DNA of 27,738 nt, taken from positions 1-27,738 of the forward strand of contig JAUXJL010000001.1 in assembly GCA_030624805.1 (NCBI GenBank), in the 5' to 3' direction. The stretch is from Acidimicrobiia bacterium. Lineage in GTDB: Bacteria > Actinomycetota > Acidimicrobiia > Spongiisociales > SHLN01. Under the pieces are notes generated by a model that saw only the letters and a program-made list of their open reading frames with translations, did no database searches and was not told where the DNA came from. Of the stretch, positions 13,023 through 20,988 are shown piece by piece; the stretch's first letter is position 1; each line of letters starts with the position of its first letter. A program made the translations under genes and the position numbers.

Positions 13023-14152
13023 ATGCTCTACCTCGATCATGCAGCCACCACCCCGATGCGACCGGAGGCCTGGGAGGCGCTTTCGGAGTTCAAAGAGGTG
13101 TACGGCAATCCCTCCGGGGTCCATGCCACCTCCCGCGCCGCCAAGAACAGGCTGGAAGTTGCTCGGGAGCTGGCGGCAGACCTTTTGGGAGCGCAACGGA
13201 CCTCCGAAATCGTGTTCACTGCCGGCGGGACCGAAGCCGACAACCTCGCAGTGGTCGGCGCCGCGCTCGCGACCGGCTCACCAGGTCACGTGGTCGTGTC
13301 GGCGGTCGAGCACAAGGCTGTGCTCGAATCAGCGGGCTTCGTCGACCGGCTCGGAGGGCACGCAACGGTCGTGCCGGTCGATGGCGACGGGCTGGTTGAT
13401 CCCGCAGTGGTGGCCGCCTCGGTTAATCCCGACACGACGGTCGTATCCGTGATGACTGCGAACAACGAAACCGGCACACTTCAACCAGTTGCCGAAGTGG
13501 CCGAGGCCGTGCGAGCGGTCAATCCCGCCACCCTGGTCCACACCGATGCCGTCCAGGCTTTCATTTCGGAGCCGGTCAAGGTTGACGCCCTCGGCGTTGA
13601 CCTTCTCTCGCTGGCAGGCCATAAATTTGGCGGCCCAAAAGGTGTTGGCCTGCTGTACGTCCGCGATGGTGTTCGGCTCGAGCCGGTCGTCCACGGTGGC
13701 AGTCAGGAGATGGGACGCCGGGCCGGCACTCATAACCCAATGGGGATAGCCAGCATGGTGGCCGCCATGAAGGCAACCGTCGCCGACCGGGCCGCCTTTC
13801 GGAGGCGGGTCGCTGACGTCCGCGACACGTTCGAGGCCGATTTGGCGGCGGCGGTCCCGGGGTTGGCAGTTAATGGTTCGCTCGATCGACGGCTAGTCCA
13901 GCATTCGCATCTCGGGTTCCCCGGCCACACGTCCGAGACGCTGCTCATCCGGTTCGATCAGGCGGGTTTAGCGGCCGCGGCCGGATCAGCCTGTCAGAGC
14001 GGGGCCGTCGAAGTGTCACACGTCCTGGCAGCCATGGGTATGGGGGAGACGGAGGCCGCTGAAGCAGTCCGCTTTAGTTTCGGATGGACCAGCCAGCCCT
14101 CCGACGCCAAGGTCGCCGCCAAGATCGTCACCGAAGTGCTGGGCGTCCTGGC

Positions 14153-14156
<4 letters not shown>
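13023..14156 (+). CDS. iscS: cysteine desulfurase (IscS/NifS family, MnmA-associated)
   Basis: YLDHAATTP, YGNPSG, HTDAVQA, SLAGHKFGGPKG (PLP Lys) and GSAC (catalytic Cys). Confidence 0.95.
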
Positions 14157-17845
<3,689 letters not shown>

Positions 17846-17898: not shown

Positions 17899-18774
17899 CT
17901 ACATTGACGCACCGGCCAGGTCACCGAGAAAGTCGAGGAGGAGCCGGTTGACTGGCTCCGGTTGCTCCTGCTGGGTCCAGTGGCCGCAATGCTCGACCGT
18001 CTCCACCCGGAGATTGGGTATCCAGCGGTCCATCCCGACAACCAATGACGCGGGAAGAACCGGGTCGGAGTCGGCGGCAATCATCATGACCGGAACTATG
18101 ACCGGAGCATTGGCAAGGTGCTCGGTGGCAGCGGAGTTGGCGTCGATGTTCCGGTAGTAGTTGGCCGGGCCGGTGATGGTGCCGGCTGTGAAGGCGTCCA
18201 CGTATACCTGGAAGTCGGCCTCGGTCATGAACTCCGGGTTGGAGGCCCCTCCCCGGTAGAAGCCGGCCAGCTTCTCGGCAGGCTCCGGGGTGAACCAACC
18301 TTCAGCCACACCTGGCTCCTGCAGCATTAGGACGTACCCGAAACGGTTGGACAGGTGCTCACGGATGTACTCGATTGTGGGGAAGGCGGCACAATGGCCC
18401 CGATAGGGCACGTTTAGAGATACCAGGCGCTCGATGCGTCCCGGGTGCGCCACAGCTGCCGCCCAGGCGATGATGGCACCCCAGTCATGAGCGACCAGCG
18501 CGACCTTTTCATACTCGAGGGCATCGATCAGGCCGATGAAGTCGTCGACGAGTGTGAGCAGACCGTAGGCCTCGACCTCGCTCGGCTTGTCCGAGGCCCC
18601 GTATCCGCGCAAGTCGGGCGCGATTGCGCGGAAACCGGCTTCCGCCAGGGCCGGGAGCTGGTACCTCCACGAGAATGCCAGCTCGGGGAATCCGTGCAGC
18701 AGGACAACGGGATAGCCGGTGCCGGTTTCGTCTACCGAAAGCTCAATGCCGTTGGTGGGTATCCGCCGGCTCAT
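17899..18774 (-). CDS. alpha/beta-hydrolase, epoxide hydrolase (EphA-like)
   Basis: HGFPE oxyanion motif, APDLRGYG, AHDWGA (nucleophilic Asp), ANYYRN, DPVL and GHWTQQE (His). Confidence 0.88.
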   Translation of the reverse strand: MSRRIPTNGIELSVDETGTGYPVVLLHGFPELAFSWRYQLPALAEAGFRAIAPDLRGYGASDKPSEVEAYGLLTLVDDFIGLIDALEYEKVALVAHDWGAIIAWAAAVAHPGRIERLVSLNVPYRGHCAAFPTIEYIREHLSNRFGYVLMLQEPGVAEGWFTPEPAEKLAGFYRGGASNPEFMTEADFQVYVDAFTAGTITGPANYYRNIDANSAATEHLANAPVIVPVMMIAADSDPVLPASLVVGMDRWIPNLRVETVEHCGHWTQQEQPEPVNRLLLDFLGDLAGASM

Positions 18775-20582
18775 GTCGGGCTATCCAATCCCAGAGCAGC
18801 TTCGGCCCCGTCGAGGGTCTGCCCTCCGCTCAGAACCGGAGCAAAACGGTCGCCAACGGCTTCGAGGCGTTTCCATATGGTTTCGATGGTGAACAGGTCG
18901 GGAGTCAGGACTCCCACCTCCTCCCATGCGAGGGGTGTGGATACCGGTGCCCCCGGCCGCGGTCGGACCGCGTAGACAGACGCGATGGTTTTGCCTCCGA
19001 CGTTTTGATTGTGGTCGATGAAGACCTTGCCCGCTCGCCGGGGGATGTCCCATTCCATCGTGACATTGGTCGGATCGGCGGCCGCCATCAAACGTCCCAC
19101 CGTCTCGACGAACCGTCGGACTCGGCCGTAGTCATGAACCGGATCGAGCGGCACGTAGATATGGAGTCCGGTGGCTCCGGATGTCTTCGGGTAGCCCCGC
19201 AGGCCGAGATTGTCCAGGGCCACTTTGATATGTAGAGCCGTGTCGACAACCTGATCCCAGCGGGCACCGTCGGCCGGGTCGAGGTCAAAGATCGCGAAAT
19301 CGGGCCGTTCGACCGAGTGAATCCGAGACAGCCAAGGATGGATCTCGATGCATCCCATGTTGGCAAACCACATGAGCGAGGGGCGGTCCGGGGCGGTACA
19401 GAATTCGATGGCTCCACCCCTCACTTCGGAGTGGATCGGTGCCACCGGCATCCAATCCGGTTTATGGGATGGAGCTTGCTTCTCGTAGAAGAACTCGCCT
19501 TCAGCACCGTCGGGAAACCGTGCCATCACGATGGCCCGGTCCTCCAAGTGGGGAAGGAGCACGGGTGCAATCGAGGCGTAGTACTGAATGAGGTCGCCTT
19601 TGGTGTATCCGTCGGGGAAGAAAGGTTTGTCAGGATTGGTGACCCGGAGTGGGTGCCGGAGCCGGGTGGCCCGGTAACTTCCGGCTTCGTTGACGATGGC
19701 GAGGGGAGAGGGGAAATCAACGGCACCAGACCCGAGAGGTCGGGCGTTTGGCTCCAGCTGCTCGGATGAGGCGAAAGCCGCTCCTACGTCCGCCCAGACG
19801 GCCTGGTGGCTATTGTCGTCCCGAGACTCCGAGACAATGGTGAGATCGACGTCGAATTCGGCCGCGGCCTCGACGACCGGCTCAACCGGGTTTGAGCCCT
19901 CCCCGTACGGCACGTGTTTGATCTCGCCGCCCGGCCCGAAGGAGTTGTGGCTGTAGTGGGTGTGAAGCGGCTGCAGCTTCCAGGCCGGGAACTGGTCGAA
20001 GAGAAATGAATACACAGACCGCACCGACTCCAGATCTACGAGGCGTCCGTCGGTTGTGGCGTGTACGTGCGCCCAGTCCACAACCGGACGTACCCAGGGG
20101 AACTCTGCCGCCAACAGGGCGATGTCTCCGAGATTTCCGAAGGCGTTGGCGGTTCCGGTCGTCTCCAGGCCCAACACCACTCCGAGATCGCGGATCTTGC
20201 CCGCGATGGAATCGAGTGCTTCGACCGCGGTCGTGAACAATTGTTCTGAGGTTCGGTCCCGGTCGTGTCCCGGGTGCACCACCACGATCGACGCTCTGAG
20301 CTTGGCGGCCAGCTTCATCGTGTGCTCGACAGCTGCTCGGGTTTTCTGGTACCGATCTGGCTCTTCGATGGTGAGTATTGCGAAGTAAGGCGCGTGCACC
20401 GAGAGCCCGAGGCCACGTTCGGCCGCCAACGCACCAAAGGAGGAACAGCGCGCCTCCTTCCATGGGAATCCCCTGGTAAACGCCAACTCGAATGCGGTGT
20501 GGCCCTGCTCAACAAGATTGTCAAGGAAGGCCTCGTCATCGTTATCAGTCGGCAGGGTCGATATCCCGAAGGAGATGGCCAT
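18771..20582 (-). CDS. fusion protein, 603 aa: N-terminal endonuclease IV-type (AP_endonuc_2 TIM-barrel) domain plus C-terminal LigD/Prim-Pol polymerase domain
   Basis: Start moved from 20690 to ATG 20582 because the upstream gene stops at 20587. N-half motifs: SVHAPY, VVHPG, LGLETTG, VVDWAHVH, LHTHYS, GEIKH, VSES. C-half motifs: TNPDK, YTKGDLIQYY, RFPDG, FDLDP, KTSGATGLH, FIDHNQN, YAVRPRPGAPVSTPLAWEE. Confidence 0.9.
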   Translation of the reverse strand: MAISFGISTLPTDNDDEAFLDNLVEQGHTAFELAFTRGFPWKEARCSSFGALAAERGLGLSVHAPYFAILTIEEPDRYQKTRAAVEHTMKLAAKLRASIVVVHPGHDRDRTSEQLFTTAVEALDSIAGKIRDLGVVLGLETTGTANAFGNLGDIALLAAEFPWVRPVVDWAHVHATTDGRLVDLESVRSVYSFLFDQFPAWKLQPLHTHYSHNSFGPGGEIKHVPYGEGSNPVEPVVEAAAEFDVDLTIVSESRDDNSHQAVWADVGAAFASSEQLEPNARPLGSGAVDFPSPLAIVNEAGSYRATRLRHPLRVTNPDKPFFPDGYTKGDLIQYYASIAPVLLPHLEDRAIVMARFPDGAEGEFFYEKQAPSHKPDWMPVAPIHSEVRGGAIEFCTAPDRPSLMWFANMGCIEIHPWLSRIHSVERPDFAIFDLDPADGARWDQVVDTALHIKVALDNLGLRGYPKTSGATGLHIYVPLDPVHDYGRVRRFVETVGRLMAAADPTNVTMEWDIPRRAGKVFIDHNQNVGGKTIASVYAVRPRPGAPVSTPLAWEEVGVLTPDLFTIETIWKRLEAVGDRFAPVLSGGQTLDGAEAALGLDSPT

Positions 20583-20586
20583 GGGC

Positions 20587-20988
20587 CTACTGCACCCGGA
20601 AGGTCCAGGCATAGGAGCCGGAGTCGGGAAGGCCGGCCGGTCGCTCCCACTCGATCCGGATCTCGTGGGTGCCAGGGGTCCAGTGCTCAATGAAGCGACC
20701 GGGAGCAGGCTCCCACGTGAACCGGGTGGTACCCGTCTGGATCCCGATCACGATCGGTGAGATGCGAATCCCGTCGACAAATAACACGATCTCGTAGCCG
20801 ACTCGCATGTCGATCTCGAGGGCCGCCTGGCGTATGACTGAGTTGTTGGGGATCGGAAGGACCCTTTCGACAGGCTCGGGGAGTGATGACTCCCTACCGG
20901 ATGGGCTGAAGGCAACGGCGAACCAGACGACGGCAATCAGTGCCAGCCCCAACCCGGTATAGAGCAATCGGTAGGTGGTGTCCTTCAT
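20587..20988 (-). CDS. membrane-anchored hypothetical protein with a probable Ig-like/CopC-like beta domain, 133 aa
   Basis: N-terminal TM helix, then a beta-rich domain ending GTHEIRIEW...SGSYAWTFRV. The fold call is by resemblance only. Confidence 0.65.
   Translation of the reverse strand: MKDTTYRLLYTGLGLALIAVVWFAVAFSPSGRESSLPEPVERVLPIPNNSVIRQAALEIDMRVGYEIVLFVDGIRISPIVIGIQTGTTRFTWEPAPGRFIEHWTPGTHEIRIEWERPAGLPDSGSYAWTFRVQ

Follow-up and report, generated by a model that had tools for sequence, protein, structure and literature searches.

The first 27,738 nucleotides of contig JAUXJL010000001.1 from an Acidimicrobiia bacterium (assembly GCA_030624805.1; this whole stretch is called the window below) carry on the reverse strand a gene of 603 codons plus a stop codon (P0001, 18771..20582), in which a TIM barrel resembling endonuclease IV (EndoIV) is joined in one chain to a LigD-type primase-polymerase domain (PolDom). 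This fusion is a real and conserved single gene of marine Acidimicrobiia, and its sequence marks it as a genuine variant of the LigD/Prim-Pol repair toolkit, with a function that is predicted. On the same grounds it falls outside Nfo, as delimited by the curated threshold, and is neither a Prim-PolC nor a LigD as these proteins are named. The reading that we favour, and consider probable, is that of a ligase-less two-module enzyme for processing DNA ends, in which the barrel would clean 3' ends, the PolDom would fill and a separate ligase would seal, with no need for Ku.

A conserved single gene of marine Acidimicrobiia

A preliminary description, made from the sequence alone, had reported one uninterrupted open reading frame (ORF) of 603 residues, and this holds: the translation has no internal stop and both Pfam domains are found in it. 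From the N-terminus, the protein consists of the EndoIV-like TIM barrel (residues 1-273, 19764..20582; Pfam AP_endonuc_2, hhalign, metal-ligand columns and Foldseek), a structured linker (residues 274-310, 19653..19763), the LigD-type primase-polymerase domain (residues 311-579, 18846..19652; Pfam LigD_Prim-Pol, TIGR02778, PDB matches and Foldseek) and a conserved C-terminal tail of the pattern FAPVLxGGQxLxxAExALG (residues 580-603, 18774..18845), all on the reverse strand. The ATG at 20582 was taken as the start because orthologues begin there, their N-termini coinciding and sharing the motif M-I/A-x-F-G-I-S, and because the upstream ORF ends at 20587; a mechanical ORF list runs the same frame out to a TTG at 20690.

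Among 5.8 billion proteins searched, more than 120 protein clusters of about 600 residues carry both Pfam domains at 59-83% identity, and they derive from NCBI, JGI, ENA and Logan assemblies of Acidimicrobiia. Their members go under source names such as 'non-homologous end-joining DNA ligase', 'bifunctional NHEJ protein LigD' or 'TIM barrel protein'. Within a sample of 151 genomes of the class, the window's order accounts for 37, of which 28 have a full-length match, and the 114 genomes from other orders have none. A second sample comprised 61 genomes of the order (its tallies take in one unpublished genome, G157, on which no individual claim rests), and 50 of these had a match to the fusion protein at E <= 1e-90. 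The preliminary description had considered that homologues might always be two separate genes; the genome counts show them as single genes, 49 of the 61 genomes having the two-domain form and only one further match (G177) being restricted to the polymerase.

The stretch is also present in marine sediment and seawater metagenome runs of about ten studies. Contigs of four independent marine sediment runs differ from the window by substitutions and have no insertions or deletions, and one metagenome contig piece is free of gaps over 19637-19787, that is, across the linker region (19652-19773) where the preliminary description had wanted continuity confirmed. An assembly chimera or frameshift is therefore rejected on the independent clusters, the genome counts and the indel-free metagenome contigs taken together. 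As the preliminary description had supposed, the architecture appears to be undescribed: no description of it was found in the full-text literature searched, which covers few subscription journals.

Two polymerase-only orthologues are nested in the fused clade (L019:3260-4246 in G086, and L067, G177:C8:362226-363095). The one in G086 matches the fusion from residue 281 onwards, keeping the linker motif described below, and the gene upstream of it encodes an unrelated cadherin-like protein. From their sequences, both look like cases of secondary loss of the barrel.

The barrel, the polymerase and the segment between them

The barrel matches Pfam AP_endonuc_2 at residues 21-261 (E 1e-30), and its best sequence matches among solved structures are the EndoIV of Thermus thermophilus (3AAM, E 1e-4) and that of Mycobacterium tuberculosis (5ZHZ), while a profile search of solved structures put MJ1311 (3WQO), 5ZHZ and TTHB071 on top, the match to MJ1311 being weak (E 2.6e-6). 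When the barrel profile was aligned by hhalign to one built from 16 Nfo proteins of the class, canonical or nearly so, the two matched over 224 columns with a probability of 97.7% and an E-value of 1.6e-12. An AlphaFold2 model of the fusion, built on 26 orthologues, reached a mean predicted local distance difference test score (pLDDT) of 87.2 and a predicted TM-score (pTM) of 0.85, and Foldseek searches of PDB with it retrieved the EndoIV structures of Thermotoga maritima and Escherichia coli (4HNO, 2X7V, 2NQ9, 8RLY) at E about 1e-11, with TM-scores of 0.75-0.80 and root-mean-square deviations (rmsd) of 3.2-3.7. By TM-score these EndoIV structures rank highest, with 0.77-0.80 for 4HNO, 2NQ9 and 8RLY.

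In a 130-sequence alignment, H63, Y66, H103, E140, D169, H172, H207, H223 and E252 share columns with the metal ligands and the stacking tyrosine of Nfo. Compared with EndoIV (Nfo/Apn1; E. coli 1QUM/2NQ9, T. maritima 2X7V/4HNO, M. tuberculosis 5ZHZ), the barrel has the same TIM fold, and aligned counterparts exist for eight of its nine metal ligands and for the tyrosine that stacks on DNA. It differs in being only about 17-20% identical, in falling far below the threshold of the curated hidden Markov model, in coexisting with a regular nfo, and in its signature, which reads H-x-H and E-x-x-H instead of H-x-N-D and D-x-H, the Asn of the Nfo motif being replaced by His (H209). The preliminary description had named metal ligands and catalytic residues in both halves of the protein; all of them are in place, and across the 26 orthologues (58-83% identity) H63, Y66 of the H-A-P-Y motif, H103, E140, D169, H172, E220, H223 and E252 of the barrel are invariant, only H207 and H209 being variable. 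Four of these residues, H63, H103, H172 and H223, are present in EndoIV and absent from one-metal sugar epimerases; together with E220 they occupy the positions of EndoIV metal sites 1 and 3, and the sequence makes a three-metal site likely.

Most relatives of the barrel stand alone. An exhaustive phmmer search gave 341 cluster representatives at E <= 1e-10, mostly standalone proteins of 260-290 residues from Desulfurococcales, methanogens, Archaeoglobaceae, DPANN archaea, Clostridia, Negativicutes and Anaerolineae, which carry the same H-x-H / E-x-x-H signature and keep the equivalent of Y66 in 93 of 102 cases. For every relative tested the best NCBIfam match was nfo, always below threshold. 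A tree separates this group from canonical Nfo by a long branch (support 100), and we regard the barrel, on sequence evidence, as belonging to a distinct subfamily, a divergent paralogue of endonuclease IV. The preliminary description had likened it to an archaeal-style Nfo group, which is roughly right, the group being as much bacterial as archaeal, with many archaeal members. Divergence as such need not abolish activity: PfuAPE (PF0258) of Pyrococcus furiosus is about 13% identical to E. coli Nfo, yet it is an active AP (apurinic/apyrimidinic) endonuclease, and its paralogue PF1383, without two His and a Glu, is inactive (PMC2770678). All three of the residues that PF1383 has lost are kept in the fusion barrel.

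We also considered whether the barrel might be no DNA nuclease at all, being instead a sugar isomerase or epimerase, a small-molecule phosphodiesterase like CbiR, or an altered domain that serves for DNA binding or as a scaffold, and we judge this quite improbable. The Pfam family is a broad one of xylose-isomerase-like barrels, there are weak matches to CbiR, and MJ1311, a relative of known structure, was deposited under the name 'D-tagatose 3-epimerase-like protein'. Tagatose and psicose 3-epimerases likewise come out of Foldseek with E-values similar to those of EndoIV, but with TM-scores of 0.58-0.68 and rmsd of 4.3-6.9, so that both measures favour EndoIV; it was in this way, along with the metal ligands, that the clustering with sugar isomerases or epimerases envisaged in the preliminary description was checked, and its EndoIV-like assignment stands. 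Much of the fused clade has Gln both at H207, a Zn2-type ligand common to EndoIV and sugar epimerases, and at H209 (PLQAQFTDN against PLHTHYSHN; codons 207-209 of the window lie at 19956-19964), the window's own genus and the standalone relatives retaining His at both positions. The standalone relatives, moreover, lie amid housekeeping genes, namely aroQ, pepP and efp in Bacillota, and a lipid-synthesis transferase, a HerA-like ATPase or a NUDIX protein in Desulfurococcales, and we have set this gene context aside as uninformative about the function of the barrel. Against all this, the four invariant histidines are exactly the EndoIV residues that sugar epimerases are missing, Tyr66 accompanies them, nfo is the best-matching family throughout, and the barrel has been joined to a repair polymerase in both domain orders, in the slot of a DNA 3'-phosphoesterase (see below).

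The C-terminal half is a LigD-type PolDom with an intact set of catalytic residues. It matches LigD_Prim-Pol at residues 327-579 (E 1.5e-87), and ligD_pol (TIGR02778) at 239.9 bits, above the cut-off of 214.7; against TIGR02776 it scores 247.7 bits, below the cut-off of 373.2, with only the polymerase part matched. No match to DNA_ligase_A_M was found in the fusion with Pfam, that is, there is no sign of an ATP-dependent ligase domain. The catalytic residues D433, D435 and D523, the KTSG motif at 466-469 and H474 are invariant in the orthologues, as are N316, K319, K328, R355 and P357, which include residues of the 5'-phosphate pocket region (TNPDK 315-319 and K328). Among solved structures, the best scores are with the Prim-PolC of Mycobacterium smegmatis (5OP0/6SA0, 190 bits) and the NHEJ polymerase of Methanocella paludicola (5DMU, 188 bits), followed by the LigD PolDoms of Pseudomonas aeruginosa and M. 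tuberculosis (134-136 bits); in Foldseek the polymerase half matches 6SA1 at E 7.8e-25.

The preliminary description had mentioned mycobacterial Prim-PolC beside PolDom as a filler of short gaps; an identification of the polymerase half as Prim-PolC is rejected. The alignment of the fusion covers Prim-PolC residues 11-293 and the protein ends 13 residues later, with no counterpart in the fused PolDom of Loop 3 (residues 313-333 of the M. smegmatis protein), the element used for short gaps. Where Prim-PolC has the longer Loop 3 extension the fusion has its C-terminal tail, in which F580, L584, G586, G587, Q588, E594 and G598 are invariant. In a PolDom tree, the fused domains form a clade (support 96) among LigD-type PolDoms, and ligase-adjacent PolDoms form a separate one (support 100), which includes a second PolDom encoded on another contig of the same genome. 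This second protein is the true Prim-PolC orthologue, scoring 290 bits to 6SA0 over residues 4-337, Loop 3 included, and its gene (L002:1333-2730, minus strand) is convergent with that of a LigC-like ligase of 343 residues (L002:125-1156, plus strand; contig C295 of G000). The ORF of the second PolDom has some 130-160 extra N-terminal residues without a Pfam match, possibly the result of an early start call.

The two halves were described as joined by a linker of about 40 residues. A loose tether is not what we find: the motif R281-PLxSGxVxF-P291 (19710-19742, reverse strand) has R281 and P291 invariant and S285 and G286 nearly so in the orthologue alignment, and the AlphaFold2 model has strands at 280-282, 295-299 and 302-305 with pLDDT of 78-89. 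An ordered linker of this kind suggests, as modelled, a fixed arrangement of the two domains.

Related architectures and co-occurring repair genes

Outside the order, the best matches to the polymerase half are proteins of 530-583 residues with an N-terminal 3'-phosphoesterase (PE) domain, a C-terminal PolDom and no ligase (G124, G100, G021 and G009). These PE-PolDom proteins of other Acidimicrobiia orders have the same size (about 540-600 residues) and the same N-to-C order as the fusion, and in the PolDom tree the sister of the fused clade is a PolDom-PE protein of G016. Judging by these nearest relatives, the barrel sits in the slot of the LigD 3'-phosphoesterase, as the preliminary description had proposed, and this placement is the strongest argument for 3'-end processing on behalf of the polymerase. 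Like LigD and the ligase-less PE-PolDom proteins, the fusion would join a ligD_pol-type PolDom to a module that heals 3' ends, an activity that in the fusion is predicted; it differs from LigD in having no ligase domain and in that the healing module is an EndoIV-like TIM barrel and not the PE beta-barrel.

The G016 protein itself (L062:2186-4270) has 694 residues, and its last 189 match the ATP-ligase domain faintly (E 0.046); perhaps it is a LigD whose ligase module has eroded. Another frame, of 611 residues in G123 (L071:133-1968), has a PolDom at 333-593, and the 333 residues before it give no Pfam match even at E 1; either a further unknown domain fills the 'healing' slot there, or the ORF, lying in GC-rich DNA, has been extended too far.

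The same two modules are found in the reverse order, PolDom-barrel, in a protein of 600 residues (P0129/P0271) from g184, a genus of small-genome Actinomycetota and the only one with this reverse fusion among 401 genomes of the phylum (tallies that take in five unpublished genomes, G186, G230, G268, G297 and G496, on which no individual claim rests). The g184 barrel and the fused barrels of the window's order fall in one clade of 18 sequences (SH-aLRT 89). In the g184 genomes the reverse fusion is the only PolDom found, and they further contain ku, with a ligase next to it, as well as a canonical nfo (253 bits) and a PE that stands alone. At least three independent assemblies have the PolDom-barrel gene split into overlapping ORFs of 255 and 345 residues, with the break inside the PolDom (L043:4001-5802, L044:4001-5802 and G507:C104:42392-44190), so these are frameshifted or pseudogenised copies, or possibly cases of a programmed shift. 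One g184 contig (G285:C34:46391-73525) has ku, a ligase, a weak nfo-like barrel (29 bits, 273-residue frame) and a canonical nfo within about 27 kb.

Of the 61 order genomes, 48 have Ku, 57 have one or more ATP-dependent ligases and 15 have PE. This company raises the question of whether the fusion is a dedicated polymerase of Ku-dependent non-homologous end joining (NHEJ), its barrel cleaning dirty break ends as PE does in LigD and a stand-alone ligase next to Ku doing the sealing, a role that we think rather unlikely as its only one. The fused PolDom does cluster with LigD-type PolDoms and not with Prim-PolC, the sister proteins are PE-PolDom proteins, of the 50 order genomes that match the fusion, 42 have Ku, usually beside a ligase, and in G013, as in g184, the fused PolDom is the only one found and the genome has a Ku-ligase pair. 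These genomes are kin and not independent, though, so that co-occurrence is weak evidence, and the fusion was never seen adjoining ku or a ligase, either in the window or in three other loci. In the genus g16 (G078, G126 and G170; 95-100% complete) the fusion is retained, and neither Ku nor an ATP-dependent ligase nor PE was found; Ku was likewise not found in G028, a high-quality genome with the fusion. The preliminary description had proposed a base excision repair (BER) enzyme rather than one of Ku-dependent NHEJ; g16 speaks for its separation from Ku, and the frequency of Ku elsewhere, together with the Ku-ligase pairs of G013 and g184, speaks against so exclusive a wording.

Could the fusion then be a single-chain BER enzyme that incises AP sites and fills the gap, taking the place of Nfo plus Prim-PolC with no part in NHEJ? 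It has an EndoIV-like site with Tyr66, it is kept in g16 where no Ku was found, and an excision repair set of EndoIV, Prim-PolC and LigC1 is known from mycobacteria, in which, much as envisaged for the fusion, an EndoIV-type 3'-OH is extended by an archaeo-eukaryotic primase (AEP) PolDom bound to the 5'-phosphate and a separate ligase follows (PMC5663958; PMC7442782). In mycobacteria these are three separate proteins joined through LigC (PMC5663958; PMC7442782), whereas the fusion has nuclease and polymerase in one chain, its polymerase is not the Prim-PolC orthologue, and its nuclease is a divergent Nfo paralogue. Even so, we hold the single-chain BER enzyme to be unlikely. A separate, near-canonical, full-length nfo (model positions 3-277, 96-145 bits) is present in 35 of the 37 same-order genomes, and G138, of the same genus, carries both this nfo and the fusion. 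The suggestion that the fusion stands in for Nfo is rejected on this count. In the window's own genome the sole nfo-like match is the fusion itself; this metagenome-assembled genome (MAG) is 72.6% complete, and the missing nfo is probably an assembly gap. The own genome also has its Prim-PolC orthologue and LigC-like ligase, and the fused PolDom lacks Loop 3.

The chemistry likewise sits badly with the 'incise and fill' of the preliminary description. EndoIV incision of an AP site leaves a 5'-deoxyribose phosphate (dRP), while the PolDom pocket takes a 5'-phosphate. In LigD the dRP lyase resides in the ligase domain (PMC4770248), which is absent from the fusion. Cleaning of 3' ends is therefore the better fit.

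Of the 50 order genomes that match the fusion protein, 9 have PE, as do 6 of the remaining 11, counts that are confounded by phylogeny. A strict anti-correlation between PE and the fusion is rejected; the replacement of PE by the barrel is architectural, not strict. In three order genomes without the fusion (G038, G110 and G142), matches to PE, ligase and PolDom form a cluster next to ku, a classical LigD-type locus, and in G110 and G142 these matches lie in one frame of 848-869 residues.

A predicted route for cleaning and filling, and its setting

In the mechanism that we propose, the barrel would act as an EndoIV-type metallo-phosphodiesterase that strips 3'-phosphate, 3'-unsaturated aldehyde or 3'-phosphoglycolate and leaves a 3'-OH, and AP-site incision may be a further activity. 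The PolDom, held at the downstream 5'-phosphate, would extend this 3'-OH over a short gap, and the nick would be handed to a separate ligase, either LigA, the LigC-like ligase or a Ku-associated one. In evolutionary terms, an EndoIV-like barrel would have taken the slot that the LigD PE holds in the sister PE-PolDom proteins. We infer the substrates, the order of the steps and the hand-off within one polypeptide. Such an enzyme would be independent of Ku, yet probably serve Ku-dependent end joining as well where Ku occurs, and its distribution suggests a role both in single-strand gap repair and in Ku-dependent joining.

As the coupled step, we prefer the cleaning of 3' ends at gaps with a 5'-phosphate over AP incision, for the reasons of chemistry given above and because a supply of such gaps is at hand. 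Glycosylases of the Fpg/Nei type make gaps of one nucleotide that are flanked by a 3'-phosphate and a 5'-phosphate, and the latter is what a PolDom binds. They are encoded in the window's own genome and in G138, G078, G126 and G013. A sequence of this kind has been reconstituted in vitro, from FPG through the 3'-phosphatase of EndoIV to Prim-PolC and LigC, with EndoIV as the best partner (PMC5663958), and ligD and nfo are epistatic in Bacillus subtilis spores (PMC4770248).

A bolder version is that of a self-sufficient 'clean-and-fill' enzyme which, with LigA alone, would make up a full route for 3'-blocked single-strand gaps, and perhaps for breaks, with no Ku or ATP-dependent ligase, as in g16; the barrel would have displaced PE, and the fixed domains would channel the 3'-OH from one site to the other. 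We put this forward tentatively, as possible but doubtful.

Several observations weigh against the 3'-end-cleaning enzyme that we favour. The barrel fails the curated threshold for Nfo, reaching 30.4 bits on nfo (TIGR00587) against a cut-off of 129.65, with the fused barrels of its relatives at 26-45 bits. The Asp of the Nfo D-R-H motif aligns with Ile221, the invariant Glu220 being one residue upstream, and with Gln in place of H207 and H209 the metal site may have changed within the family. No characterised member of the barrel subfamily was found in the literature, so the activity of the barrel is a prediction, and its standalone relatives have no DNA-repair neighbours. No partner gene next to the fusion is conserved across loci. 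The argument for independence from Ku that g16 provides rests on one genus, PE coexists with the fusion, as a standalone protein, in 8 order genomes and in g184, and the sister position of the G016 protein has an SH-aLRT of just 89 in a quick tree.

Around the fusion, the window offers mostly ordinary genes. An ORF of 133 residues with a hydrophobic stretch at its N-terminus (20587..20988, reverse strand) ends 4 nt before the ATG of the fusion; it matches no Pfam family, and it adjoins the fusion elsewhere only in the same-genus genome G138 (71% identity). Downstream, the start of an alpha/beta-hydrolase gene (17899..18774, reverse strand; Abhydrolase_1, E 1.8e-33) overlaps the stop of the fusion, an adjacency that is kept only within the same genus. 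A conserved operon of these three genes is rejected, since it is confined to one genus and the three other loci have unrelated neighbours. The NAD-dependent DNA ligase LigA (15228..17258, forward strand; Pfam DNA_ligase_aden, OB, HHH and BRCT) is convergent with the fusion, two genes off and 1.5 kb away, and might do the sealing, but this closeness is not conserved, the three other loci showing no LigA in the neighbourhood of the fusion. In agreement with the preliminary description, the window encodes no Ku and no ATP-dependent ligase. Upstream of the fusion in the window (13023-17845) are also a cysteine desulfurase-like aminotransferase, an MnmA-type tRNA 2-thiouridylase and a HAD hydrolase, and beyond it an aminotransferase, a DapD-like succinyltransferase and an M20 peptidase, all of these being ordinary housekeeping genes.

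To the picture of a fused barrel and polymerase, the present analysis adds the coexistence with a regular nfo, the separate Prim-PolC orthologue in the same genome and the PE-PolDom sister architectures, as well as the fusion in reverse order and a lineage in which the fusion is kept and neither Ku nor an ATP-dependent ligase was found. It is evident that annotation is systematically misleading here, thousands of such proteins being called 'non-homologous end-joining DNA ligase' despite having no ligase domain. The widespread barrel subfamily, which extends to Bacillota, Chloroflexota and many archaea, gains a candidate function. The 3'-end-healing module of the LigD toolkit would be interchangeable, a PE beta-barrel in some proteins and an EndoIV-like TIM barrel here. 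Overall, the fusion provides natural comparative evidence for the joint action of an EndoIV-type end cleaner with an AEP repair polymerase, a pairing for which the earlier support came from mycobacterial pull-downs and in-vitro reconstitution and from one epistasis test in Bacillus spores.

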